Source: Sphaerodactylus townsendi (taxonomy: Eukaryota). From it: a stretch of 64,000 bases of DNA. Made by a program: the position numbers and the translations under genes. Shown here one piece after another: positions 1,719 through 49,700 of this stretch. Location: NCBI RefSeq assembly GCF_021028975.2, contig NC_059425.1, positions 26,350,001 through 26,414,000 on the forward strand, read 5' to 3'. The notes beneath the pieces were generated by a model. That model saw only the letters and a program-made list of their open reading frames with translations. It was not told the origin of the DNA and made no database searches. Within the stretch, counting starts at the first letter, position 1. Every line of letters begins with the position of its first letter.

Positions 1719-1845
1719 GGACACAGTGTGTAACAGACTTCCCTCTGTGATACCCCTCTGAAGATGCCAGCCACAGATGCAGGCGAAACAAGGAACAAGA
1801 TCCACCCGACCACGGCCACACAGCCTGGAAAACCCACCACAACCA
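1719..1845 (+). mobile_element. Penelope-like (PLE) pLTR fragment with a degenerate hammerhead core
   Basis: CCTCTGAAGATGCCAGCCACAGATGCAGGCGAAAC; near-identical to the copies at 3.7 and 6.6 kb; cleavage triplet lost. Confidence 0.7.
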
Positions 1846-2299
1846 CTCTGCCAGTGTATAGAGACACAAATTCCAGGGCCATACCTGCCACTGAAGACAG
1901 CTTTCAGGGGTGGTCGACCTCTGGTTCCAACAGCAGCCTGAAAAGCAAGCCTGTGCATCCAATGACTTCCCCCACCCCAGTCTTCCAGACCCCACACCCT
2001 AGTTTTATTTATTTATTCATTCATTCATTCATTCATTCGATTTGGTAAACTGCCCTATCCCCAAAGGGCTCAGGGCAGTGTACAAACATGCCAACCAATA
2101 CAATGTAATTTAAAGGCACAAATCGAATAATCCAAATTAAAACAATAAATACAGTACAATAAAAACAGTAGCAGTAATAACCCATCCATAATTAACTAAA
2201 TAGATGACCTCTGGCATTAAACCCCGGGAGGGGACCGGCTCGGTGTTCAAGTGAGCAGATGGCACATAAGGCAACAGAGAGGGGCGGATTCAGCGGCCA

Positions 2300-3010
2300 G
2301 CCTCCCCAAAATTCCTGAGGGGTGACGCCGCTGTGTAAACCGCAGATGCCCCCTACTCCGGATTAGCTGTCTGGGGAACCCGAGGCGCAAAAGGCGTCGG
2401 AAAAGCCAGCCAGCCAGCCCCCGCTCGGCGCGGCGCGCCCCTTCCCATCATCCCAAAGGGCCGCTTTGGAGACGGGGCCTCCAGCAGGGAGAGGGAGACT
2501 CACCTTCTGGAAGGGCGACTCCTCCTCAGCGCCGCCCGCTCCATGAGGCCGCTGGGCGCCCCCAAAGCAGACACGGGGGGGGGGGGAGCGTCCTGGTCGC
2601 GCCGCTGCCACCGCCGGGGCGGGGCGGAGCGGCTCTTTGGAGTCTGCGCGCCCGCCCGGGAATGGCTGGGAAGGAGCAGGCCGAGTCCTCTCGCAGGCAG
2701 GCCTCCCTCTCTCTCTCTCTCTCTCGCTCTCTCGCCCACCTGGCTGCTGCAGGGAAGCGTGGCCGGTCTGGAGTGGGAGCCCCCCCCCCCCCGGCGCAGG
2801 TTTGGAGCTGGCTCTCGGGCCGAGAAAAGGGGGAGAAGGATATGGGTCCTCCTCAGTGCCGCGTCCACACGTGCACGCGTTCACTAGATCCGTTCGAAGG
2901 CTTCTTGCCTTGATCTGTCGGTTGTGGGTGCGCTGATTGTGTGTGACTTCACCTGGCAAGCGAGGAGTGTCTTCGCGTCCAGTTCTCAAAGCGGTGCTGG
3001 AGGGTAGGCG
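2300..3010 (-). promoter_or_regulatory. CpG island with a probable first exon of a minus-strand gene leaving the window (donor AAG|GTGAGT after 2504; ATG at 2544); identity unresolved, SLC29A2 possible by synteny
   Basis: Very high CpG/GC content; GC boxes; E-box CACGTG (2868); (CT)n tract; consensus donor at 2498-2503. Confidence 0.6.
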
Positions 3011-3347: not shown

Positions 3348-3606
3348 CGCATGTGCAAGGAGATTCATGTCTCCTGGTCCTCACAGTTGTCCCTCTCCCC
3401 TCCTTTCTTCTCGCCTTTTGTCCCAGAAGCCTGGAAAGTGTGTCTGTGCGATTTACTAGCTTGTTCTCACCTTATGCTTCCAGGTGTCAATCAAGGCCAT
3501 TATGCTCGTAGGGTTCCCAAACTGCAACTGGTGTTCTCCTGGAGTTCCGACTGAACTGCAGATTACCCAGATCAGTTCAGCTTCAGAGGACAAACTCTAT
3601 GGTATA

Positions 3607-3833
3607 TTGTCGAAGGCTTTCACGGCTGGATTCAACTGGTTCTGGTGGGTTTTCCGGGCTGTGTGGCCATGGTCTGGTGGATTTTGTTCCTAACGTTTCG
3701 CCTGCATCTGTGGCTGGCATCACTTTTCTCTGTGATACCCCTCTGAAGATGCCAGCCACAGATGCAGGCGAAACGTTAGGAACAAAATCCACCAGACCAC
3801 GGCCACACAGCCCGGAAAACCCACCAGAACCAA
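3607..3833. mobile_element. Inverted PLE pLTR pair with an intact minimal hammerhead ribozyme motif at 3740-3780 (+)
   Basis: 85-bp arms 3637-3721 and 3748-3832 with one mismatch; flanked by TCTATGGTATA/TCTATAGTATA (probable TSD). Confidence 0.75.
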
Positions 3834-4529
3834 TCTATAGTATACCACTGAGTGTGGGGAAATATATCCCCTCCACAGGCACTACTTTCAAATCTCCAGG
3901 AATTTCCCTGGCCAAAGCTCTTCTCAGCCGCCTTCCACATGCCTGCGTACAGTTGCACAATGGCTGGGCTAGAGCATCCGACTGGGGAGACCCAAATCCA
4001 AACTCTCCCTCTCAGGCATGAAACTGTCAGGTGACCTTGGACCAGTTGCTCCCTTGGCTCTAACCTACCTTACGGAGTTGTTGTGAGCCAACCCTTAGAG
4101 AAAGGCTGGAGTTAAAATGCAGTAGACAACAATTTGCACAGCTAGCAAATATTCAACAAGAGCAGCTTCTCCCGATGCTCTGTCAGAATAAAAGAGGGTT
4201 ATTATTCTGGGGGGACAGGTGTGCAGGCCCAAGCAGCCCTCAGGGGAAAACACTCTGCACAGTCTCAGAGGTACTCTCCTAGTGTCCCAGGGTCAAACAG
4301 TGGCACTGGCTAAAATTTGAAGTATGGGCCAGGTTACATATAGCAGTTCCTCTGGCATGATTACGTATGGAAACCTCTCATGAGTCTGCTGCTAGTACCC
4401 CAGTGAGAAAAACACTTCTGCAGCCCATACTAACATCAGTTTCAGTATTGCTTAAGTTTCCGTATCTTCCAGCCAAAGACCTCTGGGAATTGTAGTTTTA
4501 AGGAAGTGGCTGAAGATCATTGCTACTGA

Positions 4530-4776
4530 ATACTAGAACTAGGGGGCATACGTCGAAAATGCTGGGGGGAAGAATTAGGACTAATAAAAAGAAACATTTC
4601 ACGCAACGTGTGATTGGTGTTTGGAATATGCTGCCACAGGAGGTGGTGATGGCCACTAACCTGGAGAGCTTTAAAAGGGGCTTGGACAGATTTATGGAGG
4701 AGAAGTCGATCTATGGCTACCAACCTTGATCCTCCTTGATCTGAGATTGCAAATGCCTTAGCAGACCAGGTGCTCA

Positions 4777-4937: not shown

Positions 4938-5782
4938 ATTCTCAGCAGCCTCCTAAAGTACCATGCCCAGAATTAATTTTTTGGGAGGGGGTGGGTGGGA
5001 TGAAATCATCAGAAGCAAGTCCGATTCAAATTGCTTAAAATATCCCATGCACATTGCTGCCCTTGGGGTATTGTCCTTGGCTATTTTTTGTGTTCTGCCG
5101 TGTCTTTGGGAATGTTTCATTCTAGAATCCTTTAAAAAAATGATACATAAATTAATGCTCTGCCCTTTACATGTCAGCCATTTTAACAAGGCAAACCAGA
5201 AGGGCTACTTTTGAGAGGTTTTCCAGGCTCAGAAAATAGCAGAGGTCATGCAAGAACAGAAACAACTGGTCTTTACCAAGCAGGGAAAAAAGGGATGAGG
5301 TAACTATTGGTAGAGGTTGCGTTACACAGATAAGCATGTTCAAAATCTGATCTTTTTTAAAAAGCAAAGGAATTATTTGTTTTGGAGAGCAGTGCATTTC
5401 CTGCTGACCTTTCTCCAAACAGTTCAGGGTGACATGTGCTTTCCCCCATTCTAACAACAATGTTGTGGGGTAGGTTAGGTTAAAATATTGTGAGCCTCAT
5501 GGGAAAGAGGAGATTTGCACCTGGATCTTTGCAATCCAAACGCAATACTATCTATGCATCACTAGTGCTACAAAATAAAGCACTGCCGGATCAGACAAGG
5601 ATCTGTCCAGGTCAGCATTGTATTTCTACCAAGGATGCAATTGAAAGGTTACAACAAAATCATGAAGGCAATAGCCTTCCCCAGAGTGCAATATTCAGAG
5701 GTAGACTGCTTCTAAAAATGGAGTTTCAAGTTCGTCATCATAGACTATTGTTCAACCATTCTACCATGGATATGCTTTAACC

Positions 5783-5922
5783 CAGAGGTGTCCAACTCTG
5801 GCGCTTCAAATGTTCATGGACTATAATTCCCACCAGCCCCTGCTGGCAAGGCCAATTGGCCATGTCAGTAGGGGCTGATGGGAATTGTAGTCCATGAATA
5901 TCTGAAAAGTTGGACACTCCTG
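5783..5922. mobile_element. Palindromic hAT-type MITE
   Basis: CAG..CTG termini; internal inverted symmetry; 8-bp TSD CTTTAACC/CCTTAACC; family copies at ~10796-10859, 38881-39013 and 42768-42909. Confidence 0.8.
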
Positions 5923-6606
5923 CCTTAACCTTTCTGGAGCTTTATAAGCAAGCGGTCAAAAGAACATTTACATTGCCTGGCTGAACCAGTGTTCCAAGGC
6001 CCAGTGTTCCAGCATCAGCCAGCCAGATGGCTTTGGTGCATGCACAAGCAGGGAAAGACGACAACAGCCTTTTCCTGGCTATAACATCTGGTATTTAAAG
6101 GTATACTGCCTCTTTACATGGAGGTTCATGAAATGAGCACCTTCAAAGTCAAAGTTGGGGTGGGTGATGGGACAGAGGCTGTACAAACTGCCTGGGCCAA
6201 TTTCAGAGGAAAAGTACGAACCCTGTTGTTTTGCTGAACTTTGAGCTCCTTGCTGCTTTCCCAATCAAACAAGTTTGTACAGCCCTGAATGGAGATCAGA
6301 ACTTTTTTGAGTATTTTCAACCTTTACTTGGGCCTGGGGCTGAACTGGGAGCAGTGGGCGAACTGGGGTCAATTGAACCCCAATGGCCCATATAACATTT
6401 TCCTTCCCCACCCTGCTATTTTCTCTATGGGAAAGCAACAGAAATAAACTGTACCCAAGCAGCATCTCTCGTTCTCACCCTACTTAACTCTTTGATATTT
6501 CCCTGGAAACCCGCCCCCAACCCCCTCATTAAAATCTATACCTACATCACTGTTCCCCACCCTGGGACATGGACAATATACCCCACTAAACTTTCCCTTC
6601 TCACTA

Positions 6607-6734
6607 GACACAGTGTGAAACAGACTTCCCTCTGTGATACACCTCTGAAGATGCCAGCTACAGATGCAGGCGAAACGTTAGGAACAAAATCTACCAGGCC
6701 ATGGCCACACAGCCCGGAAAACCCACCACAACCA
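6607..6734 (+). mobile_element. PLE pLTR fragment with an intact minimal hammerhead motif at 6642-6682
   Basis: CCT-CTGAAGA-T-GCCAGC-loop-GCAGGC-GAAA-CGTT-AGG. Confidence 0.75.
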
Positions 6735-8285: not shown

Positions 8286-11109
8286 GCAACACTAAGCAGT
8301 TTATAGCATTGTTCCCCTCTCCTCCATTTTATCCTCACAACAACTGTCTTCAACAGCTGCCACCCCACAAGAATCTGCCAGAGGGACATGGGGGGGTCAA
8401 TTGCCCTCAGGTGTCCCCCATTAGGTCACGTGGGGGGTGCCTGGCAGGCCTGCAGCCTGGCCCCACTAGCCTTCTCCTTTAGCTGGCAGAGGTTCCCCTG
8501 GTGCCCTTCAGCCTGGCCCCGTCACTGGCTAAGGAAAGGGGGGCACGCGGGGCACGCGGGGGGGGGGGGCGCCTGGAGCAGGTGTTGCCCCAGGTGCCAT
8601 TTTCCCCTGGTATGCATCTGGGTGGCAGCATCTCCAGTCACAGGCAGCAGGTCTTGGAAAAGGCCTGTTTAGTTCCTGGTCTAATACTTTGGAGAGCTGC
8701 TTGTGTTGCAAGTGCGCGGTGCTGAACTAGACTGAGCAAAGGCCTGACCCCGTATTTAGGCCTTGCTTTTTCCCCCAGTGGAAACCCAAAGTGATGTACA
8801 GTCGTCCTTCTGTCTTCCATTTTATCTTCACTAAGCTTATGAGGCAGGATAGACTGATAGAGAGTGAATGGCCCAAGGTCATCCAGCGAACCTCCATGCC
8901 AGACTAAGGGGTCAAATTTGGGACACAGTCCCTAGTTTGATCCTATTACCACTACACCACACTGTCAACTTCATCTGTTCATCCAGCCCTGCTCGAGCAC
9001 AAGAAAATGGATAGTCATCTGGATCCTTATTTTTTCCCGTGGTTTGGCCCATTATCCCCGAGGAGACCAGCTGCTCCCCATCTCCCTAAGGGTTCTGAGC
9101 AAGACCACCCCACTTCCAAATCCTTTGGTCTTTCCTCATATGTCGTATTCTCTGGTCCTGTTGAATTGCTTTTCTCTGTTCTTCTTCACCTTCTTTCCAC
9201 TTGCTTGCTCGGCATGTGTATATGTTAAGTGATCAGCCAGAACTTAGGGCAAAGATCGCACCAGTACTGAGCAGAAGGGGAGAGAACGCCAACTCTGTCC
9301 AATCTCACCCCCCCATTCCAAAGTGGTTTTTCCCTTTCTATAGCATAGCATTGCAGAGTTTTTGAAGCTCCCTTGCTTTAGTAATGGCCTGTCTCATGGC
9401 ATGGTGAAATGTGGGGAGCGAGCTTCTTATTGACCTAAACATCAAATCTACAGTGAGAGACAGAATGCTGGACTTTTGATGTGTTCTTGAGTTGTTGAGA
9501 ACTGGGAAATCTCAGCTTTAAGTTTCACCCTGGTGAAAAAATTCTCTGTATAGCCGTAGGACAGCCATGGTTCTCTGAGGCTGCATGGGGGATAGTAGTA
9601 GTAGCCATCAAGGTTTTTATAAAGATCAGGTATATGAACTGGAACAAATCATCCAGCGTCTGTGTAACTTCCTTTGTAATACTCCTTCTCCTTCTTTTCC
9701 ATATGACCTCTCTCATCATTTACTTGTTTTCCCACTGTCTGATTCTGAGTTGAAATTCTGTGGAGCAGGAATTTATTTATTTTTTGCTTCCATGGGAGCA
9801 GCCCATAAATTGACGAGGGTTCTGCCCCAGAAAGAAAAAACCCAGCAAGGTGGTTTCTTCTGTCCTTGCTGCGCTTCACGGTCAATTTGACGGGATGGAC
9901 AATCCCCCTCCCCTGATCAAAGTTTGTACTTCTTGGCTGTGTGGAACACCGTAAAGGAGAAACAGATTATATATGTACGATCTATCCTTCGTTTATACAT
10001 ACTTCATTTTTTTATCATTCCCCTTTTTAAAGGAATTCTCTCTTTTGCTCATTCTATCTGACAATGATCCTGCAAAGCGCATCCCAAAATATTACAAATA
10101 CACCCCCAAGTAAGCACTTTGCTTTACGGAGAACAACTTGTCAGTGGTCCCTGGCTCAAAAAGTGTCCGGCTGTCCTCAACCAGGGCCAGAGCATTCTGA
10201 GCTCTGGCTCCAGCCTGGTGGAATGCTCTGTCGAATGAGACCAGGGCCCTGCGGGACTTGCTTCAATTCTGCCGGGCCTGTAAGATGGAGCTATTGTGCC
10301 AGGCCTACGGTTGAGGGCAGCAATGGCATTTCCGACAGAACTGGCCTCCCTGTCCCTATCCTCATCCCTTCCCTGCCCCCTTTCCCTTTCTCTTTTCCCC
10401 AATTAGATCTTCTCATTCCTTTGTTAGATCAGGTTTTAGTGCCATTGGCTGACGTGCTAGGAGTTGACACTGTGTATATTCGTTGCAAGCTGCACTGAGC
10501 CCATCGTGGGGAAGGGCAGCCTATAAATCAAAAATAAAATAAAAAATGAATAGTTTAGGTTAAGAGAAAATGACCAGGACCAACCAATGGGACTGTGTTA
10601 GGATTTTAACCCAAGGGGCCCCAGTCCCAGTCTGACACTCTAATAGCCACACCATCTTGTTCTCCTAATATAACAAGTGTGCCAACCTGTCTGTACAGCT
10701 TAATCCATGTATGTACCATATTCAGAGCAAAATATGCAGTTATGTATTTTGCATGCATGATGGTGACCCTGATCTTCAGGGTCACCATTCCCTCCTGGCA
10801 GGGGCTGATGGGAATTGTAGTCCATGAACATCTGGAGAGCCACAGGTTGCAGACCCCTGCCCTATACAGATTTTGTCTGCACATAGTAAAAAATATCACA
10901 AGAAGAAATTTCTGCTGGACCCACAAACACAATTGTTTTGGGTTGTTATTAACTATGATTCTCCTGTGCGGAACCTTACACTAAAAATCCATATGAACTA
11001 TTATCCCATTTTTCTTTTAATTCCATCGATATGTTGAGATATTGATAATACACCTTATGCTGTGTTTGCATCATTGCTTCAAAAAAAAACCACTCTTCCC
11101 CCTAGCTTT

Positions 11110-12983: not shown

Positions 12984-15900
12984 CTGTAGAAAGAGACACA
13001 AAGGAAGGAAGTGGTTGGTTAGTACTCTATGGTTTCAAATTCACTGTAACATTCCTAAAGGATAGATATTTGCCATCAATCATTGTGTGGTCGGTTGCAG
13101 AAGGACCAAAATATGTGCAACATTGACCGCTTCTCCCCACCCTCCCTTTGCTTTATCTGACAGGTCCAAAATTTTGACACTGCAACAGTCAACCCTTTCC
13201 CTCCTACCAGTCCTAGTTCTGATGCTTACCTTCATGGAAGCCTTCTTGCATATGGCTCTGGAGTTGATACAACTCATCTAACCCATCACAGGGAGAGTTT
13301 GAGGCACGTGTCTCAAAGGCTGTTTCATAGGAGGCCAGTTCTTCCAAAAAGCATCGCTCTTCTGGAGGCAGGTCCATGCTGGGCGAGGGAGCCAAGGCTC
13401 CTTGGCTACTATCTTCATTGTCCAAGCTCACTGGACTACTGACATTCCCACCGCAGAACTGGTGGTGAGGGCACCTCATACCTGTGCCACCTTTCTCGAA
13501 CAGAGAGGCAGACAGGTCTTGGAGAAGGGTCTCAAGAGCATCCTCTTCCAGGAGATCTTCCTCTGGACAGGTCAACAAGGAGAAGTCAACACTCCTCCAA
13601 TTCTTTGGAAGCTGGAAGTCCAGGCATGCTTCAGGGATGGCGGCCAGTGCAGAGAAGTCAACAGCAACCTGACTGTTCTTGGCCAGCTCTCTGGAAGGGA
13701 TGGAGCTGAAAGCTTCAGCCAAGCTGCTGATCTGCTGGGCCAGTAGTTTGATCTCATTCTTCTCTTTTTCAGAATATCTGAAGAAAGTCTGTTTGATGGG
13801 TGAGGCTTCCGGAGTCAGGATCCCCTCGGGCACCATGGGCACATCAATATAGAGAGGACCTCTGATCTCAGGCAAGGTCATGACGGTACAGTCCCCATTA
13901 CCAGGGCTGTCCGGGGTAGGCGGTAACTTCTCATAGAGAGCACTGCATTGTTCCTGGGTGTAGAACAGCTCAGAGGAGGTGGTGGTGATGGTGGTAGTGG
14001 TGGGGGCTGCAGACGGAGCAGGAGTAGTCACTGGAGGCAAAGCTGCTGGGGCAGAGCTTGAGGTGTAAGACTCCTGGGTGGCAAAGAGGAAGGCAGAGCC
14101 CTGGTGGGGCGTATAGGGAGGGGTGCATACAAAGTCTTTGGAGGAGCCACCAGGGTTGTCCCTTCTTAAAGTCTGCTCATAGCCGGTTGGTACAATCACA
14201 TAGCTGAATGCTGGGCCTTTGCCGAGGAGACTGAGTGTGGAGCCAGGGGCCTCCTCCATGGAGGAGATATTTCCAGGCTCTATCAGCTCCTGGGGCAGAC
14301 CGGCAGAGGTTGTCTCTGTGAATCCCGAAGGGCAGTCTGTGCCACCTACAGCACTAAAATCAAAGGATGGCACAGCAGCACTGCTGGTTGGGGTGCTAGC
14401 CATAGGTGTGAAGACTTGATCAGGGCTGGAGAGCTGCCCTGGAGACAGAAGACCTTCTAGGAAAGGTGGTGTGCTTCCAAGGACATAAGCCACTTGGGTT
14501 TCTTCGGTGGTCAGCTGCTGCTTGAGGCACCAGGCTTCAGAATCACTGCGAGAATAAAGAATGGGGAACTTAGTTCAGTATCCCAGGGGACCTCAGCCTC
14601 AGCAAAATATAGGGACTTGCTCCTGCTCAAGACCACCTGCTCCCTTTTCTCCAACCTTTCTCTAATCCCAGATTTTGGATTATAAACTCCTCGCAGGCAG
14701 GGAAGTGTCTTTTTTTTTTGCATAATAAATTCTGTGAAGCTCCAATGTCCTATAAAACTCCTACCATCAATTCCCCTTGCCTTGTTTTCTAGAACACTGT
14801 GCTGCCCATTCATTTTTAAATTATTCCGTTTTTATATGTTTGTCTTTGTTTATTCATTCAGGAGTGAAAAGCCCTAGATTAAAATGAAATCAGGTGGGAA
14901 TCGATTACACCCTGCAATATTTCTTTTCAGAATCCCCTGTAAATTGTTTGTTCCCACTGTTGTCTGTTGCTTTTCCAGACTTTACAGTCTTATTGGTGAG
15001 TCTGGAGGCTTCAAGCACCTGTTTCTCCATGTGGCCAGAGCAACTGCATAGCAGATTTGTAAGCGGCCATTTGTCTGAGTTGTTGGGCCTGTGATAAAGT
15101 TTGTCCCTCCCATGCAGCAGGGGTCCTATAGAAGGCAAGTGGAGGTGACCTTTCTGAAGGCAGAGCGAAAGAGGGACAATTTTGGCCAGGGGATACAATC
15201 CAGTTTTATAGAGGGCTAACTTCAGATGGTGTACCCCTCCCCGCAATTGACCAGTGACCAAACAAAATGATGGAAAAAAAGCCTTGACAATTCCATCCAT
15301 TGCTAAGCTTATTAAGAATTGTAATTTGCCCCCCATCAAACAATTTGCCCATCCCCCATCAAAGGTTCTCAATCATTACCTTATGATATAGCTGTGGCAA
15401 ATGATAGGGACATCAGTATTCTCCAAGCGGAGAAGCGAGTAGATCCATATCCAATTCAGGCCATCTTTCGTTTGGAGTCGGAGGACCATTTCAGCTTGGG
15501 TTTCGTTCGTGTCACCTACTGGAGAAAGAAGTGCACAAGGAAACATTTAGACCATCGGCCTCACCAAAAGATGCAGCTGAGTCACTGTTTCCTGGGACAC
15601 AGCAAATGGAGGGGGTGGGATAGAGCAGTGGGGATACTCACACAGTCGGTAGTGCTGTACAGAAGCATGAGTGAGATCTTCCGGGTGGATCAGGCTGTAC
15701 CACGACTTGCGTAAAAGCTCGCTTTTCTCATAGCCCAAGTGAAAAATCACACTAGAAAACAAGCAAAACCAAAACGAGAACAGTCAGTACTGGCCAATGA
15801 ACAGATAATCATCTGCCAACAGTAGCTCGTATCAGGCTGCACCCTCACATCTTCTGCCAGGCACCCATCCCCTCACATTCACAGAGCACCTTCTCACCTT

Positions 15901-21269: not shown

Positions 21270-21465
21270 GAAGAATGTGTTGTTGAATGCAACTGACTCA
21301 TGGCTATCCCATCCACAGGGGGTTCTCGGCAAGAGATGAAGAGAGGTGGTTTGCGGTTGCCTTCCTCTGCATAGCAGCCCCAGTTTTCCTTCATGGTTTC
21401 CCAACCAAGTACCAACTGTGGCTGACCCTGCTTAGTTCCCAAGCCCTCATAAGCTTAGGCCACAC
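21270..21465 (-). mobile_element. 5S rRNA-derived/Sauria-type SINE
   Basis: Minus strand has 5S-like CTAAGCAGGGTCAG..GGTACTTGGTTGGGAAACC followed by Sauria-like GAGGAAGGCAACCGCAAACCACCTCT. Confidence 0.6.
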
Positions 21466-21949
21466 TTAGACTATTTAAGCCTCTATTAAAAGGGTAGGAT
21501 ATTTTTCCTCCTGGTTTGTCAGCAACTTTATAATGAGCCTCCTCAATAAAACCACTGGAGGGATCTTTGACTCTCACAAGTTTATGCCCCCGAAATCTTG
21601 TCCGTCTCTTGATGCTACTGGACTCGAATCTAACATCTGGAGGAGGGAATTTCATACTGCACCAAGAAGAGAGGAGCATAAAAGAATACTGACAAAAAGA
21701 AATTTGAGCTAGGTAGAATTTCCAGTTGCAAAATTGGGGCGGGAGGTTAAAAACCCAAATCCTGACCCATGCCTAACAGCAACTCAATCTGCATACCAGT
21801 CCAAGCTGTTGTTAAAGGCAGAGGAACAGAGGGCTGAAAAAGAAACTGGCAAGATTTCAACAAGGAATTGGGTGCTGGATATTGGATGCTGTAGATAGGC
21901 CTGAAATTATGTGTCCTTTGAGGAATAGAGGTGCATTGAGCAAAACTTC

Positions 21950-25446: not shown

Positions 25447-25682
25447 TACTGTCCGAGGCGCTTCCACGGCGGGAATCACTAGGTGTTGTGCTTTTGGTGT
25501 GGTTCCTGGGAGGAAAGTCAGTACGTTGCAGCATTCTTCTGATAGTTCGCCTGATATCAGACGGCTGGCATCTTCAGAGGATCTGATCCTCTGAAGATGC
25601 CAGCCACAGATGCAGGCTAAACGTCAGTAGAGAATGCTGCTCTAACATGGCCATACAGCCCAGAAAACCACACACAGCACCC
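25447..25682. mobile_element. Inverted PLE pLTR pair with a 14-bp TSD
   Basis: CATTAGCAGAACTG at 25433-25446 and 25683-25696; central perfect inverted repeat 25563-25605. Confidence 0.75.
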
Positions 25683-28600
25683 CATTAGCAGAACTGACCA
25701 TACTCTACGCCCTTTCCTGGTGCTTGTGGAACTGTGGTTTCAGGCTGATTTTGACATCTGCCAGTCTCCTGGAAACTCCTCGAACTGTTGAGCGGGGATT
25801 TCTAAGATGTAACCTGTCACTTACATTTGTTTCTGGTACTGCGCAGCTCATGGGGGTGCGGGCTTAGCTTTGAAGCAGAAATCGGGAGGTGCCCTTTAGC
25901 CACTTTTATTAATACTCCATAGGAATCTGTTATTACAGAGGCTTCTTTTCACCCCTGGGTAAAAAGCAAGATGAGTGATCCAGTGTGTCAAGACTTCCAT
26001 ATGTTCATTTTCTGCCACCCAAAGTTAATCAGAAGCTTTGTCCATGGGGGTGCTTCCCCTGCCACTTACCAAGGGCAGCTATTTAACTAGCCACACTTAA
26101 TTCGAGTTATTTGCAGGAATATGCTGATACCGGTCAGGACCACTGCCAGCCAAAAAATCAATCTTTTGTAATTAAGTGATTGCCAATGTCCAGTGGGGCC
26201 TGGCAGTCTCCCAGAATCACAACTGGTCCCCAGGACTAAGCAGAGATCAATTCGCCTGGAAAAAAAATGGCTGCTTTGGAGGGTGTTTTCTGCTTGCATT
26301 AAATCCTCTGGCTGAGGTCCCTCCCCCAGCCCTGGACTCCCCAAATCTTCAGGAATTTCCCTTACCTGTTTGCTGGCAACCCTATAAGCTTTACTTCATT
26401 CACACATATGCCTTTGCTGTATGAGGAGGAGTATGTATTACATGCACTCAGACACAAACACACGGGAGTGGTTCTTCGTGATCATTCAAACCACATGCTC
26501 TGTGGAGTTATTTTCTTGTTTCCCGTCGCACATTTTTGACCCCCTCCTTTCCCCTGAGCTCATGCAGCTGCTCTCTCTCCCAGGGTCAAGTATTTTGCAA
26601 GCTGAGCATCCCTTTGTCATTCCTCGAGAAGGGACCACACAGAGCTGGCATTGGTCCCAGGGCATACCAGGGTAGCTCTGAATGCAGGCCACCACTGATG
26701 TCCCACGCTTCCTGATACTGAGGTCCAGTGTTGCCCAGTACCTGGAATGGAAGGCCACGTGAGTAAATATTATTTCTAGTACACTATTCTTCACACCTGA
26801 ATCAGGGTTGGGTTCACCTGAATCTTCACCTGGGTTCAGATCATATTTCTGCCATGAATCCACAAAGGAGCCTTTGATAAGACTGCCTTCTCCAAGTTTC
26901 AGGGCCCGGCTCCCCAATATCAGTGATATTACTTCGACCCAGGGAGCCTTGAACATCAAAAAATATATAGCATTGAAAATCCTGTTGGTCTTTAAGGCAC
27001 TAGGCCCAAATCTAGTAGTGTTCTATTTCAGACCAACACCACTGCTCCACCTGAAACTATCCTGTAGGTTTGGCTAAAGCATTGGATCCTTTCCAATTTC
27101 CTTTTGGAAGAATTGAAGTGTTGTGCGGATAGGCTATGCTGGCCTGAGGACCTGATCTCAAATCCGCTAAGGCCACATGGAGTTGCCTGGCTAGTCTCCC
27201 AGCCCAACCTACATTTTACAGAGGGTTGCTGTGGGAGGATAAAGTGGTTGGGCAGAAGAAGCGGTAGCGACTTTTGGTAAACTCCCACATTAAACTCTTT
27301 TGGAGGAAGAGCAGGGGAAGAATTAAGCAATGTATGGAAGCAGCTTGACTATTCCAAAATGGTGCATAGCTTTACTATTGTTAAGTTGTTAAATTAACAG
27401 TAATGATATTACACACACACACAGCTTTGGGCTTCTGTAAAACAAAATCTCAATCCCTTTGCTGAGCACAACCCCCCCCCCCCGCCTCCAGCCTTCCTCC
27501 CAACCCTTTTTCTGAGTAGCAGTTCACTCTCTGGCCCAATCCAGCTTTACACTCCACCAGGTGGACTGCCCTACAAAGAGAGATGTGGTGGGAAACAACC
27601 CTGCCTCCCAGGCACTTGAGCTGATCTTGGCAGCTTAACAAAACTGGGTTTTGCCACAGAATATACACACTTCCTGAATGCATACAGCAGCTTGCCACCT
27701 ACCGGCTGTTAGCTCTGGACTAAAGTAGAAGTGTATATGATGTATGTATTCTCAAAACACTGGATTGTCATGTTCGCTCTCACCCCCCTTTTTTTCTCTT
27801 AGTTGTAAGGACAGTGTTAGTTATGGCAAGCTGCTGTTTTCCCCTGCTGGCCAAAAAACATCTGCTGCTATGGGCCTGTTATTGCAGATCATAAGCTTCA
27901 GTTCCCACTTTGGTAGGGTTCTGGCTCAGTAGCAGAGTACCTGCCTTGCATGCAGAAGGTCCCAGATTCAATCCCTGGCACCACAGAATCATAGAGTTGG
28001 AAGAGACCACCAAGGGCCAACAAGTCCAACCCCCTGCCATGCAGGAACCACACAATCAAAGCACTCCTGACAGATGGCCATCCAGCCTCTCTTTAAAACC
28101 TCCTCCAAAGAAGGGAGACTCTGCACCTCCTAGGTAAAAAAGCAATCCATAGGTGATATGAAAGAAACCCTTTGGGAGTTGTTAAGCCAGCCAGAGTACA
28201 GTGATATGAAGCTGAGTCAAAGGATATGACTCAAGAGAAGCAAGTAGCCTCCTGGTGTCCAATAATGTAGTAAAAAATCAGCCGTGCTGCTGAAAAGGAC
28301 CCCTTTTCATCCTTTTCCTTTGATACAGCATTTTGGGGCTGAAAGTGCTTTTCTCTGATTGACTGTCCTTTCCACCAAGGAAATGGAGCAGGGAGACTCT
28401 ATTGTAGCTTTCTACAGCAACTGGTGTTCTTCTGGGCCTCTGTAAATGGCCCAGTCCCAGGACTGTAGAAGCCATAAAAACGCAGCCCCAGTGATACTGG
28501 AACAAGATGCAACCATCTACTAAGTCTTCCTTCCTTCCCTTTAATCTCAGGATGATCACAAAAGAGGCAAAGGCCCTTCTGACAGACGCAGGCTTCACAT

Positions 28601-35914: not shown

Positions 35915-36402
35915 GGCAAAAGCGGTTGTTGTCAGTTTTCCTATGGCTGCATGGCCTGGTTGTCTGGCTGGCTTTGCCCGAATATTTCACCTACACCTGT
36001 GGCTGGCATCCTCTCAGAGGCATCTGGACATGGTCTACCCACATCCCATGCGGAGGGAGGGGAGGTGAAGGAGGAGGGAGTGCCATGCAAGGGAAGGGGA
36101 GGGAGGGGTGGCATGCAAGGACGGGAAGGGGAGGGGCTGCGTCTGGACACGGGTCTCACCCACTCTACCAGGGAGGAGGAGAGAGGAGTGGCATGCAAGT
36201 GAACGGGAGGGAATGAGGGGAGTGAGTGAGGGGTGGCATGCAAGGGAGGGGGGGGGGGAAGTGGGAGCGCAAAGCGCTAGGAGCAAAGCGTTAGGAGGCA
36301 AAAAACTCCTAACGCGTTAGGAGCAAAAAACTAGTTGAAAGCGTTAGGAGCAAAACTAAAGCAGACCACGGCCATGCAACCCAGAAGAAAAACCACAACG
36401 AC
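35915..36402. mobile_element. Degraded inverted PLE pLTR pair enclosing a purine-rich low-complexity insert
   Basis: Left arm ..TGTGGCTGGCATCCTCTCAGAGG; right arm CGTTAGGAGCAAAA..CAGACCACGGCCATGCAACCCAGAA. Confidence 0.55.
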
Positions 36403-38238: not shown

Positions 38239-38430
38239 TATTGTCGAAGGCTTCACTGGCTGTTGTTAGTTTTTCTGGGCTGAGTGGGTTTTCCAGGTTA
38301 ATTTATTGTGGCGTGGCTATTGAGGGTTTTATGGTTAAAGTCATGTGTGGTCTGGTACTTTTAGCTCCCAATGTTTTGCCTGCAGATGCCAGACCACGGC
38401 CACACGGCTCAGAAAATCCACAATAGCCAG
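38239..38430. mobile_element. Degraded inverted PLE pLTR pair
   Basis: Starts TATTGTCGAAGGCTT like the 3.6-kb copy; ends CCAGACCACGGCCACACGGCTCAGAAAATCCAC. Confidence 0.6.
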
Positions 38431-38724
38431 TATACACTTTTAAATTATGCAAATGAACTTTCTTATACTGGCTGTTAACCTCTTGCTTTAAATTCTGATG
38501 TAGTTTGACTTTTTAATTAAACAGTGTTGTTGATTTCTGCCCCCACAGTGTAAGGTCTTAAGTGCAAGAGAGATTTTCCTAAGAACAGGCAAGATAGGTT
38601 GAGAAATCCTCACATCAAATCTGCCCCCACAATTATGAATTCATCCTACACAAGTCACTGTTTTCAGAGCACTGCACAGGGCAGAGAATGGACACAGAGA
38701 ACTTTTTTTCCCTCTCCCCAAATA

Positions 38725-39070
38725 CTTGAACTCAAGGACATCTAATGAAGTTGATGGTCACTAGGATTCAGGATGGATAAAAAGAAATATTGCTTTACAC
38801 GACGAGTAATTAAAATGTAGAATTTGCTGTCAGAGGATGTCATGGCCACAGGTATAGATAGCATGAAAATGGAACTAGACCAGAGGTGTTCAACTCTGGC
38901 GCTTCAGATGTTCATGCACTACAATTCCCATCAGCCAATTGGCCATGCCAGCAGGGGCTGATGGGAATTGCGGTGTGAATCCATGAACATCTGAAGCATG
39001 CATTACACCCCTGGACTAGATGGATTCATGGAGGAGAGGTTTATCAGTGGACGCTAGCTATGGTGACCAA
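38725..39070 (+). mobile_element. CR1 3' fragment with a hAT MITE (38881-39013) nested in it
   Basis: Similar to the CR1 at 4530-4730 on both sides of the MITE; imperfect 8-bp TSD AACTAGAC/GACTAGAT. Confidence 0.7.
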
Positions 39071-40771: not shown

Positions 40772-43700
40772 CTACGAGGGAAGGTGAGAACAGAACAGAT
40801 TATTAAGCGTGGTGCTTCCCTGTAATAACAGGCCCACCCACCCACCCTTTCGAACCGGCCTGACAAAGGGTCTGCTCCTGTCTCTCTGCCCAGAATACTC
40901 TCGGCACCTTTCTCTGCCAGTTGGCAGCAGCTGCAGGTGGCTTCTCTATTTTTATTTATTTATTTATTTATTTTTTAATCTTATATACCGCCCAACCCCC
41001 GAAGGGCTCTGGGCGGTGAACAACAGTAAATTACATATAGGTTTTAAAAAGCAGCAGTTAAAAGCAGCAGATAATAACAACAATGCCCGCAATAGTACCA
41101 ATTAAATGCTCCCAGAAGGGGAGGAAAAAAGTGGGGCCCATAGGTGGTAATGGCTCGAAAAGCAGGAGGGTGGAGGGGGCGCTCATCAGCGGCTGGACAC
41201 TCCAAAAGCCCGGTGAACCAACTCAGTTTTGCAGGCCCTGGCGGAACTCACCAAGATCCCGGCGAGGGGTCGGACAGCTGGAGGAAGAGTGTTCCACGAG
41301 GCAGGGGCCAGGGCTGCAAAAGTCCTGGCCCGCAGGGAGGCTGCCAGCCGCGTCATTGAGGGGCCAGGGACTAATAGTAGATTGGCTCTGCTGAACGTGC
41401 AGAGGCCTAGTAGGGGACATATAAGGGGTAATGCGGTCGAAGGTATGAGGGTCCCAGGTCAGCAGAAGGCCTTAAAGGTAAGTACCCATACCTTGAAGAT
41501 GATCCGAATTCAACCGGGAGCCAATGCAGGCTTACGCGAATATTGGTTGAATATGGTCACGAGGTTTCGCGTGAGCAAGCGGTCACGCGATTTTGGACCA
41601 GTTGTAATCTCGGATCAGCCGCAAGGGTAGGCCTGGCGAGCGAAGCGAGTTACAATAGTCCAACCTGGAGGTGACCGTTGCATGGATCACCGTGGCCAGG
41701 TCCGTGTGGGAGAGGAAGGGAACCAGCCACCGGGCCTGTCGAAGATGGAAAACGAACCCGGTTATATGGGCCACCTGGGTCTCCATTGAAAGAGATTTAA
41801 TTCAGGTGGACCCCCCAGGCTGGCGGACTCGAGGGGCCGGGCGCCAATAAGGCCCCTCCCACACCGGGCGGCTGGAAATTTCCACCCTCCCCACGCCAAG
41901 CTTTCAGAGGATCTCCGTCTTCGATGGATTAAGTTTTAACCTGCTCTGTTGCAACCAACCAGCAACCGCCTCCAAACAGTGCTGGAGAGCTGCAGGGGCG
42001 ATGACCGCCTCTCCATCAACAGAATGAGCTGAGTGTCATCAGCTTACTGGATGACAGATCAGCCCAAAACTCCGCACTCAGCTGAGCAAAGGGGTCGCAT
42101 GTAGATATTAAATAACAGCGGGGACAATAGCGCTCCCTGAGGTACCCCACAATGAAGTGGGCACCGTCGGGAGGCCTGGTCCCCACACCACACTTGCTGA
42201 CTCCGATCCCGGAGGAACGAGGCAATCCATTGAAGGACAGTACCCTGCACTCAGGGAAGCTTGCTGGCGGTGGGTCAATAGGTCATGGTCGACCATATCA
42301 AACGCTGCGGTCAGATCTAACAATACCAACAGATCTAACAATACCAATAACAATACCAATTTATTTTGGTTTTCATCTTCCCTTAAAACAGCACAGAAAC
42401 ACAAGGACCCCCAGCCCCTTTGAACACATTGATCATGACACCCCCCCCCCCAAGAAGTCAAAGAAAGAAAGGCTACCTGTCCTCTGACTTTCTGATCCCC
42501 CCCTCAAGACATCCTAGAGATACTCACTCTTTCACCACCTTGATGCCCAACGATCGGGCAGTTCCTAGAAGGGATTTGATGACTTCCTCGAGCGTCGAGT
42601 CATTCAATACAAAAGAGGGGTCCTGAGACTTCACCAAGGCGATTTCATACAGGTGCTTCAGAGTCACCATCCCAGCTACTTCGTGCCCTGCAAAGCACAA
42701 AGATAATGCTAAACCAAGCTGGCAACCTGGTGGTGGAATCTCTCCCATGATGCAAATCTGTCTAGCCCAGGGGTCTGCAACCTGTGGCTCTCCAGATGTT
42801 CATGGACTACAAATCCCATGGACTACAAATCCCAAGTGGCCATGCTGGCAGGGGCTGAAGAAAATTGTAGTCCATGAACATCTGGAGAGCCGCAGGTTGC
42901 AGACCCCTGGTCTAGCCCCTGATAGTCCCATCAAATTTAAATCAAAATTTAGAAAGTCCGGCCCATGGTGTCGCTTGTGAGAAGGCGTTCTCCCCCATTC
43001 ACCACAAAGTGAGTGGGGGTGTGTGTGTGTGTGAGTGAGTGAGAGAGAACAAGAGATTTCACACAGTAGAATTACACTCTTGAGTCCTGGGGTTTCCAAA
43101 CTTGTATCCAACAGTGAGTGCTCAATAACTTTGAATTCTTTACTGAAGCTTCAGTAGTGTCATTTGCAGAGCAGGCTGACTGCACACTGCAAAATGCATT
43201 TCCAGCCCCTGCCACATCATTTGGAAAACAGAAAATTAGCGATGCCCAACAGGTATCTCCTATAATGGCAGTAAAACCACACCAAGCCCTCATTCACGTA
43301 GTACCCCGCAGCTTAATCTACCCTTTGCCTTTGTCCCCAGTCAGTTGTCATTTTTGCCTATTCTGGGCAGTTAAATATTCAACCACTGCAGCTCTGCACA
43401 ACGTCATCCAGATCAGTTTCTGGAATGCCTCAAACTCAAGTGCTCACAGTTGAATTGCATGATATTCCAATCAAGCCCAAACCCACTGTGTATAGGCAAG
43501 AGAGATTTTAAAATCAGATGTTTATTATTTATTTTTATTTATCTTATTCATTTATGTCCTGCCTTTCCCCCCAGTTTATATCATTCTCGTCTCCTTCATT
43601 TTCTCCTCACGACAACCCTGTGATGTAGGTTAGGCTGAGAGAAAGTGACTGGCCCAAGGTGAGCTTCAACGGTTTGGGTAGCATTTGAACCCAGGCCTTC

Positions 43701-46700
43701 TAGATACTAATCTGATACTCTTAATTACTGCACCACGCTAAGAGATTCCAAAGGCCCTCCTAAAAAGGTTCTGGCTTGTGAGCCCTTCAAAATGGTAACA
43801 AAGATGGTCTTAATTCATCTGGGATGCTGGCCTCTAGGGCTACAGCTGCTACCAAAACCACCCCTGAGTGAGCAGCAGCAGAGTGAACGTTTGCCGGGGT
43901 CGGCACAACCAATAAATGCAGAGAATAGCTGCTGCACAGACTCTCATTACATCTACCTTTCTGAACAGCATAATATCCATCTTACTTGGATTCAGTTTCA
44001 GCCCAACAAATGGCCTTGCAGAAACAATCGTTTTAGACCAAAATTATACCTTTTATGCTGGCTGTCTGGCCTGGATGGCCCAGGCCGGCCTCATCTCGTC
44101 AGATCTCAGAAACCAAGCATTGCTGGCCCTGGCTGGTACTTGGGTGGGAGACCACCAAGGAAGTCTAAGGTGGCCATAGAGAGGTAGGCAATAGCAAGCC
44201 ACCTCTTCTCATCTCCCAAGGGCTGTTTCCGCATGGGCCCCAGGGATGGCAAAAACGCCCAAGCAGCGCGGAAATGCCACTTTTGAACCTCGCTCCATGA
44301 GTGAGGTTTTTCAAAAGTGGCACCTTCCAGCCGCTGCCGTGCGAACAGCAGAGGCTGGAAGGTGGCGTTTCCCTCCCGTCTTCCCCAGCCGGCTTACCTT
44401 CTCCTGCTGGCTTCCATCATATTGTGAAGGCCAGGGGACATGCCTCCGTCTCCAGAGCCGTCGCTCTGGCCAGGGGGGCGTGTCCCCTGGCCTCCACAAT
44501 GTGATGGAAGTCAGCAGGAGCAGGTAAGCCGGTTGGGGAAGGCGCAGCCTGTGCGAAGGCTGCACCTTCCCCTGCACCCCTACCGGGACTGTCTGTGCGA
44601 ACTGTCCCAATGGGAGAGGGTGCATCGGCATAATTTATGCCGATGCACCCCTGCTCAGCACCCATGTGGAAAGGGCCAAGGACTCCAAATGGAGTCAGCA
44701 AAACAGTATTTTGATCCCAAAACCTTACTCGTGCTGATTTCGCCTCCGCTCTTACAAGGCACCAAATAGCAAAAGATCTTCTTTGCTACAATGACTTGTG
44801 CCACAATGAAGGGTTGAGAAAACACTCTCAGTTCCCAATGATGAAATGTGTTGGTGCCCAGGCCACCTAGCAGCTGAGACTGTTCCAGATCTTCCACCCA
44901 CACTGTTTCCCCTCCTCATCCCCAGGCACTTTGCTGTCCCATCCTAGGATTCCCATCTCTTACCAGGGTTTGTTGCACCTTTTTCGACCCCAGCTGCTGA
45001 CAGCAGAAAATAGGTGGCCGTGGGCTTGTTAATCTGGATCTCGTATGTTCTGTTGGACTGCAGAAAAAAAAATCCCCCAGGAAACGGTGAGGGAAAGAAA
45101 AAGAAGAGTCAGTGGTGCCCCAAAGATCTCTGGCAAAGGTACAAGGACAGTGTGTTGGCGTCACAGCAAAGGTGTAGCTCCAAGGGAGAAGGGGGGGTGC
45201 ATGATGCACTGGGTGCACACCCCTGTGAGGGCGTGGCAAGGGCGTTCCGGGGGCGGGACAGGGGTGGGTGGAAGCATGGCAGGGGCGGAGGATGCACCAG
45301 TGCACCGGGTGCTTTCCCCCCTTGCTACGCCTCTGCGTCACAGTGCATGCTACTGTGTGTGCACATGTGCATGCTGGAGTGACAGAAGAGCATTTCCACC
45401 AAAGTAGTGTTATTTAGATGAGATGGCTGGGTGTTTTCCCTTGGAAAAGAGCATACTGTCTTTAATCCCAAATAGTGGCAAACACTGAACATAGATTAAG
45501 TCATGTAACAAAGTACTATTCCTCCTTGATTGTAGTGGGGATACCAGGAAATCAAGCATGTAAAGCCAAAGTCCTTCCAATATTAGGGTTAATCAACGCA
45601 ACACCATGAATTTTAAAAGCCATCCAAACGGAATCTTCCTTAGTGGTGATAATTCCAGATGGGGCAGCCATTTTAGTCTGCAGCATGAAAATGCAACAAA
45701 GGCAGATTAAAGACTAACAACAGCTTCTTCCAGCATAAGCTTTTGAGAGCCAAGGAGCTCCCCAGAGATTTGTCTTCAGACAAGTGTTTAACTTGTTCAC
45801 TTCATTGGATGTATTGTAGTGTTTATCCATCAGATGATGAAGAAGAATTGGGATTTAAACCCTGCTTTTCTTAACCATAAGGAGACTCAAAGGGGCTCAC
45901 AAACTCCATCCCTTCCTCTCCCCACAGCAAACACCTTGTGAGGTAGGTGGGGCTGAGAGAATTGTAAGGTCACCCGGCAGGCTTCATGTGTGGATGGATG
46001 GATATTCCGCCCTTTTTCTGTCATGGATATAAAAACACGATACAACTGATACACTTTCTCATATTCTGCTTCATTGTTCAAAGTACAACAACATCAGAAC
46101 CTATTTGAGAACTGTGTTACCAACAGGATTTATGCTCCTTTCTGATAAAATAAAAATGGCTAAGCTTCTAAATATCTCTAGTGTTGAAATCTCTGAAGCT
46201 GTTGCTATGTTTTTGCTCTGTGTACTGCAACTTGAGCAATAATGATCTTTTTATTGTATTTGAAATTCTTGGCACTGGTTTTATGCCTAATAAAGGTTTT
46301 GGATTTGGATTTGGATATAAAAACATAATTCAATGGATATACACTCCAATGCATTTGATGAACTGAGTTCTAACTAATGAAGTCTCAGGCTGGAGTACGA
46401 TTTTGTTATCTTTATGATCTTTGTTATCTTTTATTCTTCCCACTGTTGCCCCACTGGAAAGAACAAAAAGACCGTCTCTTGGGTGTTCTTGAAAGAAGCC
46501 CATAGAAAAGCTTGTCATGCTCTGTGCCGAGGAAAGATGTGTGAGACCAGTGTGCAGATTCAGGTATAAAGCAAAAGCAACTGTGCTCTACAGTCGGAGC
46601 TGAGCCAGGGTCCTCAATGTCAGCTTTATAGTTTAGTTTTAGCAGAGGCCTTTCTTGAAAATACATCTCAGGAGCCATTACAGGCCGAACCTGAAGCCTT

Positions 46701-49700
46701 GAAAAGTCACTGCTCCTCTTTAAAACATTTCAAGCACATGCACACCCTGAACTGAAACCCACACATAGACATTGCCACGGGGATAACCAGGGACAAGTGC
46801 CCCAGACGGCCCCTGTGGAGTCACGTGGGGGGGGGGGGGTGGAAAATCACCCTCCACACTTCCAGGAAGGAGAGGGGGCATGACTGAGCCTGGGCGCAAT
46901 GTGCAGCCCCGCCCCGAGGGGTTTTTGGGGCAGAGCCACAGCCCAGCTGGCCCCTAGACTGGGAGAAAGCCCCTGTCCCTAGGACAGGCTGGGGAGCTTT
47001 TGGGGGCGGGGCTGCAGCCCAGCCAGCCCCAGGGCCAGGGGCTGGTTGGACTGCAGCCCCGCCCCCAAAAGCTCCCCAGCCTGTCCCAGGGACAGGGGCT
47101 TTCTCCCAGCAGTGGCGTATCTACCTTGTCCCAGGGCGCCACTCTTCTGGTTATGTGGGAGGTGCAAAATCGGGCCTCCACGTGACCAGGAAGTCCTGCT
47201 GCCTCATCGTTTTCAGGCGTCCTCGACCCTGCCGATGTGTCATCAACATAGGCAGGGTCGAGGGCACCTGGCAGCAGTGGGAGGGGTGGAGTCTGGGGGT
47301 GTCCGGAGGCAATTTGTCTCTGGGCCATTTACCCCCGATATGCCTCTGTCTCCCAGTGTGGGGGCCAGCTGGCTGCAGCCCCACCCCCACCCCCAAAAGC
47401 TCCTCGACCAGTCCTTGGGTCGCAGAGGGATGGGCCCAGGAGGAGCACGCCACCCCGGAGGTAAATGGGGTGCACGTGGGATGGGGGCCTTTGTGGTGAT
47501 GGAAAATTAAGATCTTGCCCCAGGCTCCGTTTTCCCTAGCTACGCATCTGACTCCACAACAATGGGGGAGAGAACTTAAACACTCTGTGATCTAAATTCC
47601 TTCACTTGTAAATCAGGGAATGAGTGTGGGCTACCTGGCAGGATTACTGTGAGTCCCTCTTTGCTTGAAATCCACACCATGGGATGTGCAACGGAGACCT
47701 AGAGCAATATTGTGAATCCCTTGTGGTAGAGCCTATTTCAGCAGAAGAACATCTCTACGCATTAAGTCCTTGGTTCAGTCCTAGTTGAAAGGATCAGGGG
47801 AAGAAGGCTGGAAAAGACTGAACTAGCCACTTAACTGGTCCTGGGTAAGTTGATCCAATTCCTTGGGTGAGGATATGGAATGTCCTCAAAGCGAACAGGG
47901 TAGCCTAGAGCAAGCTGGCTCTCTCTCTCATGCCAGCCAGCCAGCCTCACCCAGTTGCGAGCCACTGAAGCTCTTTAGCACAGAAAGCTTCACGGAGACC
48001 TAGAGCAATATTGTGAATCCCTTGAAACTGCGAGAGTACAGAATTAAGAAAAGGTTTCTCCTAGGGCACACTGACTTTTGAAAAGCCCACATTGCTGGTT
48101 CCCAGGGTTTTCTCAGCCGGGCAAGTTATGTCTATTTCCCAACAAGTTGTGTCTGTTCTCACCTGCACAGTAATGCGCGTGGGCAGTGGAATCCCCTCTT
48201 TGATGTCTTTCGTTCGCTCATTGAAATCCTTGCAAAACTGAGAGATGGGGATGCCTCTCTGGGGGGAGACAAAAGGGTATGAAGATGTTAAGCCCGTTCT
48301 CACGTACCAAAGATCCCCGCCCTCCCCTCAGAACTCCTGTCATGCCCCTAGAGGCACCCTCACTATTTTCCTTATTTAGGCCTCAGTTATATCTTTAGTT
48401 AGAATGGGCTTAGTTGGTTTTTTGTACAATTTCCTGTCCGAGGGAACCTTAGTTAGACCCTGTCCCTTTAAGAAGCCCTCTAGAGGCAAAACACTATAGC
48501 ATTCTTATTGGTTAGCAGTTCCTGCTTTACAGTTTGTTTTAGTTCAGGTGTCTGGGAAAGGCTGGAGACAGCAATATCTCAGACGTTTAAGATGTAAAAG
48601 ATCCATGATATTTTAAGTAATCCAGTTCCAACAGAATTGCAAGGAAACAGAGTCCAGGTAGAGGAGATCTCAGAAGCAATACAAGCAGGCTTCCTCAGAA
48701 GCAGTTAAGGAAAGAGTTGATGTCTGCAAGTTCTTCAAACCATCTCCAACCGTTTCCAGCATCGCAAGTATTCTTTATTTACGTAGACTTCATGGGAAAA
48801 GTCAGAGCCCTAAGCTTTCAATATTATTAAACCGTTTTTGAACTGTTACTTATTTGTCTGTGGGTCTTACACTCTGTTCTGGCTAAGGGCACGGCACCTG
48901 ATTTTAGTTTGCTTGGGGAACAGAACAACTCTCCTCTACATGCTTGGATTGCCCAGCCCCTAAGCACAGTATCCTGATTTCTCCTTCCGCAACACTCCCA
49001 AAGAAATTTATTTTTCCTAAGCCATCAAGATTTCCCTTGCTGCCCAGAGCCACCTTTCTAGGAGTCAGCAAGCTCTTGGCTGGCCTTTACTACTGTCCCT
49101 CTGAAAATACATTTATTTATTCAGAGGTTTAACACTTTGTTATGGGGAGAAGTTGATCCTCTCATGCCAAGACTCACCCCAAAACAAGACTGACTTGAGC
49201 ATGTACAGAGTAGTTCTCCATGCAATAACTCTTACTCCCAAACACCTTTCCACCAATACCCCGTGTCCATCCTTTTGGTCTCCACTGCATGTATTGGTCG
49301 TGAAGAACAGAATCTACTGATCCTCTCCAAAATAAGGGTTATTATGCCTAAGAAATTATGAGAACATTTAACAAGGGGAGGGGGGTACCTCATTTAATTA
49401 TTCTAATGGAAAAATGTAAGGGGAAATGACAAAATACTATATTTGAGGATCGATGGCAAACATAGCTTTGTGCCTTGGACTGAGAAAAGGATATGAAATA
49501 GACTTTCCTTTATGCAGTCACACAGAGAAAGAAATAGGTACTGGCCTGTTTTCTAATTGGTTATGTTTTCATGGCATTGGCCTGTTTTTCAGTGTTGGTT
49601 TAATGGCTGTGTTTTATTAGTTGTAAGTGGCCTCAAGCAGGTCTCTGGAGAAGCAGCAAGTATGTTTTCTAAATGAATTGGAGGGCTTGAGTAAAGGAAG

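Follow-up and report, generated by a model that had tools for sequence, protein, structure and literature searches.

The window, by which we mean the whole 64,000-nucleotide stretch of Sphaerodactylus townsendi DNA that was analysed, holds minus-strand exons of a bHLH-PAS gene (13213-14574 and 15550-15783, with a PAS Pfam match), which from its motifs we take to be NPAS4, and minus-strand exons with a Ribosomal L11 domain (42527-42799 and 48064-48327), which we assume to be probably those of mitochondrial MRPL11. The only gene piece identified on the plus strand is a 444-aa stop-to-stop open reading frame (ORF) of the CECR6/TMEM121 family at 52643-53977 (E 3e-47), with a low-complexity C-terminal extension. 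A CpG-rich island at 2001-3000 (observed/expected 0.72-0.75) contains a candidate minus-strand first exon, its ATG being at 2544 and its splice donor at 2503. Several kinds of repeat accompany these genes: palindromes at 46959-47109 (75-bp arms, 95%) and 44377-44544 (82-bp arms, 87%), with spacers of 1-4 nt; a short MITE-like family with terminal inverted repeats at 5782-5934, 10781-10873, 38880-38970 and 42762-42915; and, at 44065-44179, 21369-21487 and 27917-27983, weak sub-threshold 5S rRNA-like matches and a tRNA-like match (31.7 bits, threshold 29), which are possibly the heads of SINEs. The translations of 4514-4729 (+), 42108-42503 (-) and 60761-61288 (-) resemble what we take to be LINE ORF2 remnants; the two of these three stretches that were scanned gave no Pfam match.

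The feature under study is a minimal type I hammerhead motif, which an initial annotation had read from the letters alone and assigned to a young Penelope-like repeat. Re-reading of the window confirmed the motif and its sequence as they had been given. Two intact copies of the motif are present, both on the plus strand and antisense to the identified PAS-domain and L11 gene exons. The parts of the motif, the insertion that carries it and the related copies are listed in Table 1.

Table 1. Hammerhead motif, its parts, the insertion that contains it and related copies in the window.
Feature	Position	Strand	Description
Minimal type I hammerhead motif	3740-3780	+	Recognised from sequence and own descriptor
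Stem I	3740-3742/3778-3780	+	3 bp
Core	3743-3749	+	
Extra U	3750	+	
Stem II	3751-3769	+	5 bp plus A.A mismatch 3754/3766; 7-nt loop
GAAA	3770-3773	+	
Palindromic stem III half	3773-3776	+	ACGU
Predicted cleavage site	after 3777	+	
Left target-site duplication	3596-3606	+	11 bp, 10/11 identical to right
Inverted arm	3605-3721	-	ATG at 3720; extends through tail to +114/+116
Tail (~30 nt)	3605-3636	-	Inverted arm only; matches PAc +85 to +116 (hand comparison)
Direct arm	3722-3832	+	5'-truncated pLTR and element ORF start (ATG 3749-3751); ends +84 from ATG, without tail
Right target-site duplication	3834-3844	+	
Single-arm copy, cleavage triplet deleted	1720-1845	+	Candidate 10-bp duplication 1710-1719/1841-1850 (9/10)
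Single-arm copy, intact core 6642-6682	6553-6734	+	Ends at +84; left boundary uncertain, ~6553-6608
Older head-to-head pair, sister subfamily	25546-25681	.	Both cores broken: G12 to U on +, GAAA to GAAC on -
Old fragments, head-to-head order	35924-36024, 36339-36399	-, +	No intact core
Old head-to-head pair	38348-38431	.	Both motif CpGs decayed
28-nt fragment of element 3' part	63441-63468	-	

In order to gauge how readily such a motif arises, a minimal type I descriptor of our own design was run over both strands of the 64 kb, with 100 dinucleotide shuffles as background. Exactly two matches were returned, 3740-3780 and 6642-6682, and a stricter pattern returned the same two sites; the shuffles gave a mean of 0.13 matches (88 shuffles with none, 11 with one and one with two). 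Because the two matches are copies of one repeat, they amount to about one independent event, and a chance origin is ruled out mainly by the sequence homology to PAc described below and less by the descriptor count. At both sites the CUGANGA, GAAA and NUH boxes stand in type I order; in the 3740-3780 copy C3 is position 3743, G12 is 3770, U16.1 is 3776 and H17 is the U at 3777. Stem II has G10.1-C11.1 and an unpaired nucleotide after A9, with the A.A mismatch inside; it had been described as six base pairs with that mismatch, and the mismatch stands, but the pairs are five Watson-Crick pairs plus A.A. Folding of the isolated 49-mer predicted these five pairs with probabilities of 0.90-0.97. 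Stem I is short and the loop-less stem III palindromic; the predicted pair probability of stem I was about 0.4 in isolation and at most 0.015 in context. Overall the isolated 49-mer folded no better than its shuffles (z -0.37), as is expected for a motif so small, and an Rfam search returned no hammerhead family among 46 matches (E up to 5).

The other copies that had been named were likewise borne out: 6642-6682 is identical in its core and differs by one change in a loop, a 2-nt deletion has removed U16.1/H17 from the copy at 1755-1793, and in the copy at 25588-25628 G12 has changed to U and a stem I pair is broken. Comparison of the four copies, the flagged one included, showed no compensatory stem change, only breaks in two of them; against PAc, a single sequence compared by hand, one stem pair is broken and another has changed on one side in a compatible way. 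G12 and stem III are located in CpGs, and both CpGs of the motif have decayed in the 38.3-kb copy.

What had been missed was the anatomy of the site, in which the flagged motif forms the right arm of a head-to-head insertion. Of the 85 positions in 3637-3721, 84 are complementary to 3748-3832; the inverted arm begins at G8 and consequently has neither the CUGA box nor a hammerhead core. The 11-bp duplication is AT-rich, and 2 of 1500 random boundary pairs scored equally well. The arm junction shows two mismatches to sibling copies, and clear microhomology is absent. Contigs with loose ends at 3605, running past it, numbered 591-675 in three of four public sequencing runs.

Head-to-head loci number four in the window, with single arms at 1.7, 6.6 and 63.4 kb; the fragments at 25546-25586, 35924-36024, 36339-36399, 38348-38431 and 63441-63468 are additions to the initial annotation. 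The 5' ends of the copies vary, and their 3' ends cluster at +84 or at the tail end. A search for target duplications at the 6.6-kb and 25.6-kb loci gave none. The description of the repeat as young holds in a relative sense only, the nearest separate copies being identical at 79-80 of 84 positions and the 25.6-kb copy at 60-61 of 84. The pair at 25546-25681 belongs to a sister subfamily that, by hand comparison, resembles PAc more closely downstream of its cut site, a GUC triplet, so that at least two waves of this family are represented in the window. Summed contig depth over the copies was 0.35-3.0 million versus about 4-90 in unique flank bins in all four runs; this is not a copy number, and the difference of about four orders of magnitude is that of a dispersed, high-copy repeat. 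In organisms B and D, whose flanks are about 1% and 3-4% different, junction contigs reach 3-28 letters into the copies, below the 31-letter rule, and give no more than a hint that these insertions are shared with those organisms. Contigs at 6552, 3573 and 6511 (runs X1, X5 and X6) depart from the window with 302, 126 and 111 unplaced letters and are possibly insertion or deletion alleles beside repeat copies.

PAc is a PLE (Penelope-like element) of the Penelope/Poseidon clade from Anolis carolinensis (Frangieh et al. 2024, PMC11167929), and the repeat was compared with the 361-nt PAc RNA template printed in that paper, by hand and ungapped. The hammerhead at 3740-3780 is identical to PAc at 35 of 41 nt by hand count. 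From 3740 through the tail, where the direct arm supplied the 9 nt ahead of the ATG and the inverted arm the ATG and all that follows it, 95 of 125 nt (76%) are identical, again by hand count, and the N-terminal peptides share 19 of 38 residues; the homology thus takes in the pLTR hammerhead, the ORF start and the tail. In both elements the start codon lies inside the ribozyme, 26 nt ahead of the cut site, and the ORF runs from the base of stem II; a tail and an AT-rich target are likewise common to both. There are also differences: stem II pair 4 is A.A in the window and U-G in PAc, pair 5 is G-C and not G-U, H17 is U and not C, and N7 differs; the pLTR upstream of the hammerhead bears little likeness to PAc by eye, and the window holds stubs only, with no ORF body. 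Inverted, 5'-truncated copies with a 30-40-bp tail at one end are given as general PLE traits in PMC8557442, and 3605-3832 shows this arrangement. According to PMC11167929, PAc cleaves and extends both target strands and the tail lies between two reverse-transcription start sites; the tailed arm in the window ends at +114/+116, inside the PAc start region of +111 to +118, and from the 30-40-nt length of the tail +84 would be the second start site. Sequence and insertion anatomy together support placing the repeat in the Penelope/Poseidon group, in agreement with the initial annotation's view of a minimal type I hammerhead on a Penelope-like element. Among the papers listed by literature searches there was no gecko-specific report, and hammerhead, Poseidon and Anolis came together only in PMC11167929; the family may already be catalogued in Repbase or Dfam.

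Searches for the parent element covered the window and public proteins. None of the 206 window ORFs of at least 78 aa matched an RT or GIY-YIG Pfam family, and two protein searches gave no RT/endonuclease protein among longer relatives. One of these, with the 41-aa N-terminus, gave no match among five candidates; the other, a profile search for longer proteins, returned three matches, all predicted Pogona CCDC170 isoforms and none with an RT/endonuclease. One of them, P0014 from Pogona vitticeps, terminates in the N-terminal peptide of the repeat and stops at codon 28, which reflects either exonisation or a gene-model artefact; P0015 and P0016 are further predicted P. vitticeps CCDC170 isoforms matching the repeat profile. 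None of 20 candidate viral contigs was confirmed against the profile, and eight metagenome or viral contig loci from pattern scans were set aside as chance, all eight matching over only 20-23 nt in prokaryotic or phage sequence. With phmmer, 12 matches were obtained among 1.84 billion proteins; P0004 was rejected as an unrelated low-complexity repeat and the other 11, one from gecko, are ORFs over the same repeat. The stretch common to these 11 ends at or near the tail end in ten and at codon 28 (+84) in one, a result biased towards tailed copies because the query contained the tail; P0013 has the inverted-plus-direct arm order. Since no full-length element was found in the window or by these searches, the tie to an autonomous PLE rests on the PAc homology, counted by hand.

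Among published classes, the motif fits the minimal hammerheads (min-HHR) of metazoan PLEs (Cervera and de la Pena 2014, PMC4209133), whose consensus is CUGANGA plus an extra nucleotide, G10.1-C11.1, GAAA, palindromic 15.2/16.2, NUH, a short stem I and no loop III. The internal mismatch in stem II is unlike that consensus. The min-HHR, like the window copies, are described there mostly as dispersed truncated copies, with opposite-strand pairs also noted; the portion of supplement file 2 available lists no entry for Anolis, lizard or gecko.

We read 3605-3832 as head-to-head, short, 5'-truncated copies of a high-copy PAc-like repeat, likely one insertion, in which the hammerhead is a passenger predicted to be unfoldable in this setting, and we give this reading a probability of roughly 0.88. 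The best Rfam matches on the hairpin were miRNA models (mir-609, 51.5 bits), as might be expected of a microRNA precursor, or else a DNA-transposon MITE, with coincidental hammerhead boxes; these scores, however, reach about half of the 98-100 bits set as gathering thresholds and are found on either strand, some copies have a single arm, and the homology to PAc includes the ribozyme itself, which refutes this explanation and leaves it scarcely credible. The spacing of 2902 nt between 3740 and 6642, about one PLE unit and near the hammerhead-to-hammerhead distances of about 2.1-3.4 kb in Table S1 of PMC4209133, could be that of two pLTRs of one decayed full-length element. Yet the 3605-3832 unit carries its own flanking duplication, and the interval between the two sites is mostly single-copy in depth, is broken by unrelated repeats and has no RT or endonuclease match; this largely refutes the proposal, which we consider extremely improbable. 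The short copies might instead be a non-autonomous unit that spreads on its own RNA, a retrozyme or a PLE-derived SINE, and not products of truncation, given that all window copies are below about 200 nt per arm with no coding body. Non-LTR retrozymes (bioRxiv 10.64898/2026.07.22.740005) are similarly short, non-coding and pLTR-related with a type I hammerhead, and those of reptiles average 176 bp. They are defined there, however, as tandem head-to-tail repeats with an intact hammerhead in each unit, whereas no copy within the window is tandem, the copies being arranged in head-to-head pairs with variable 5' ends, and scattered 5' ends with 3' ends at +84 or the tail end are as 5' truncation predicts. 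We regard the non-autonomous unit as unlikely.

A last alternative concerns activity, namely that host or antisense RNAs are cleaved by functional ribozymes in the intact copies, chiefly 6642-6682, whether these act singly, as dimers or together with a PLE protein provided in trans. Folding of 3605-3832 predicted an 85-bp hairpin of -182.8 kcal/mol (z -25), in which all hammerhead pair probabilities of the flagged copy were 0 and the predicted penalty for adopting the hammerhead was 56.2 kcal/mol; for the 6642 copy, the predicted penalty was only 2.4 kcal/mol in a 400-nt context. The latter value is compatible with an active fold, and the core residues are all intact in two copies; a double-hammerhead dimer can be written without steric conflict, 3.5-4.1 kcal/mol above the predicted optimum for a dimer; the NUH triplet GUU can be cleaved according to PMC3138052; the same C-G-U-U end occurs in about 15 of 56 published minimal hammerheads by hand count; and the CpG-rich island at about 2.0-3.0 kb could drive plus-strand transcription. 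Against this, published minimal hammerheads are described as uncut when monomers and weakly cleaving as dimers, and PAc itself (PMC11167929) has a ribozyme that cleaved only with the PAc protein and a cut site at which no RNA-seq reads ended. By hand comparison, the motif carries the A.A mismatch in place of the U-G of PAc and U17 in place of its C, and stem I is hardly predicted to pair in context; the exons identified from 13 to 49 kb are on the minus strand, whereas the intact cores are on the plus strand; and the stem changes among the four window copies are, as noted above, breaks without compensation. That the intact copies act in this way we consider improbable. The PAc ribozyme was also dispensable for insertion in vitro (PMC11167929), and published support for hammerhead activity is modest. 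The initial annotation had proposed that transcripts across these copies could self-cleave, seeding the locus with latent ribozymes; given the predicted sequestration, the antisense cores and the need for the PAc protein, this is not supported as stated. The flagged copy is, from the predicted fold, probably not a latent ribozyme, and is likely without effect for the host.

For the preferred reading, a truncated head-to-head insertion, the following course can be proposed. At an AT-rich site the GIY-YIG/RT protein of the element would have cut each DNA strand once, with the two nicks about 11 nt apart. Reverse transcription would then have been primed from each nick at one of two internal start sites on the element RNA, giving the left arm from +114/116 and the right arm from +84. 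Both cDNAs would have stopped after about 110 nt and then been joined at their 5' ends, head to head. In a full-length element the hammerhead would likely act on the precursor RNA together with the protein of the element, and possibly a second copy, and cutting there would leave the body of the ORF without its start codon. At 3605-3832, plus-strand RNA, such as a divergent transcript from the CpG island at about 2.0-3.0 kb, would reach and yield the inverted arm first, and the motif would be trapped in the 85-bp hairpin. We tentatively suggest, while holding it to be somewhat short of an even bet, that head-to-head stubs in general may be fossils of double-primed insertion at an 11-nt staggered cut with one start site per strand; such priming would leave exactly one tailed arm in every pair.

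By itself, the finding extends a known ribozyme-bearing Poseidon family to another genome, and this changes little. For scans, it is a warning against taking an intact hammerhead core in a stub of this kind as evidence that the ribozyme works. The insertion at 3605-3832 is a clean one of 228 bp in which the tail, the target duplication and both ends are present; it agrees with the behaviour of PAc in vitro and offers a testable rule of one tailed arm per pair. If double priming is indeed the origin of such pairs, the head-to-head geometry would pair the hammerhead with an antisense copy of itself and in this way switch it off automatically, and tens of thousands of stubs would constitute a genome-scale readout of Poseidon integration steps that lack experimental validation.
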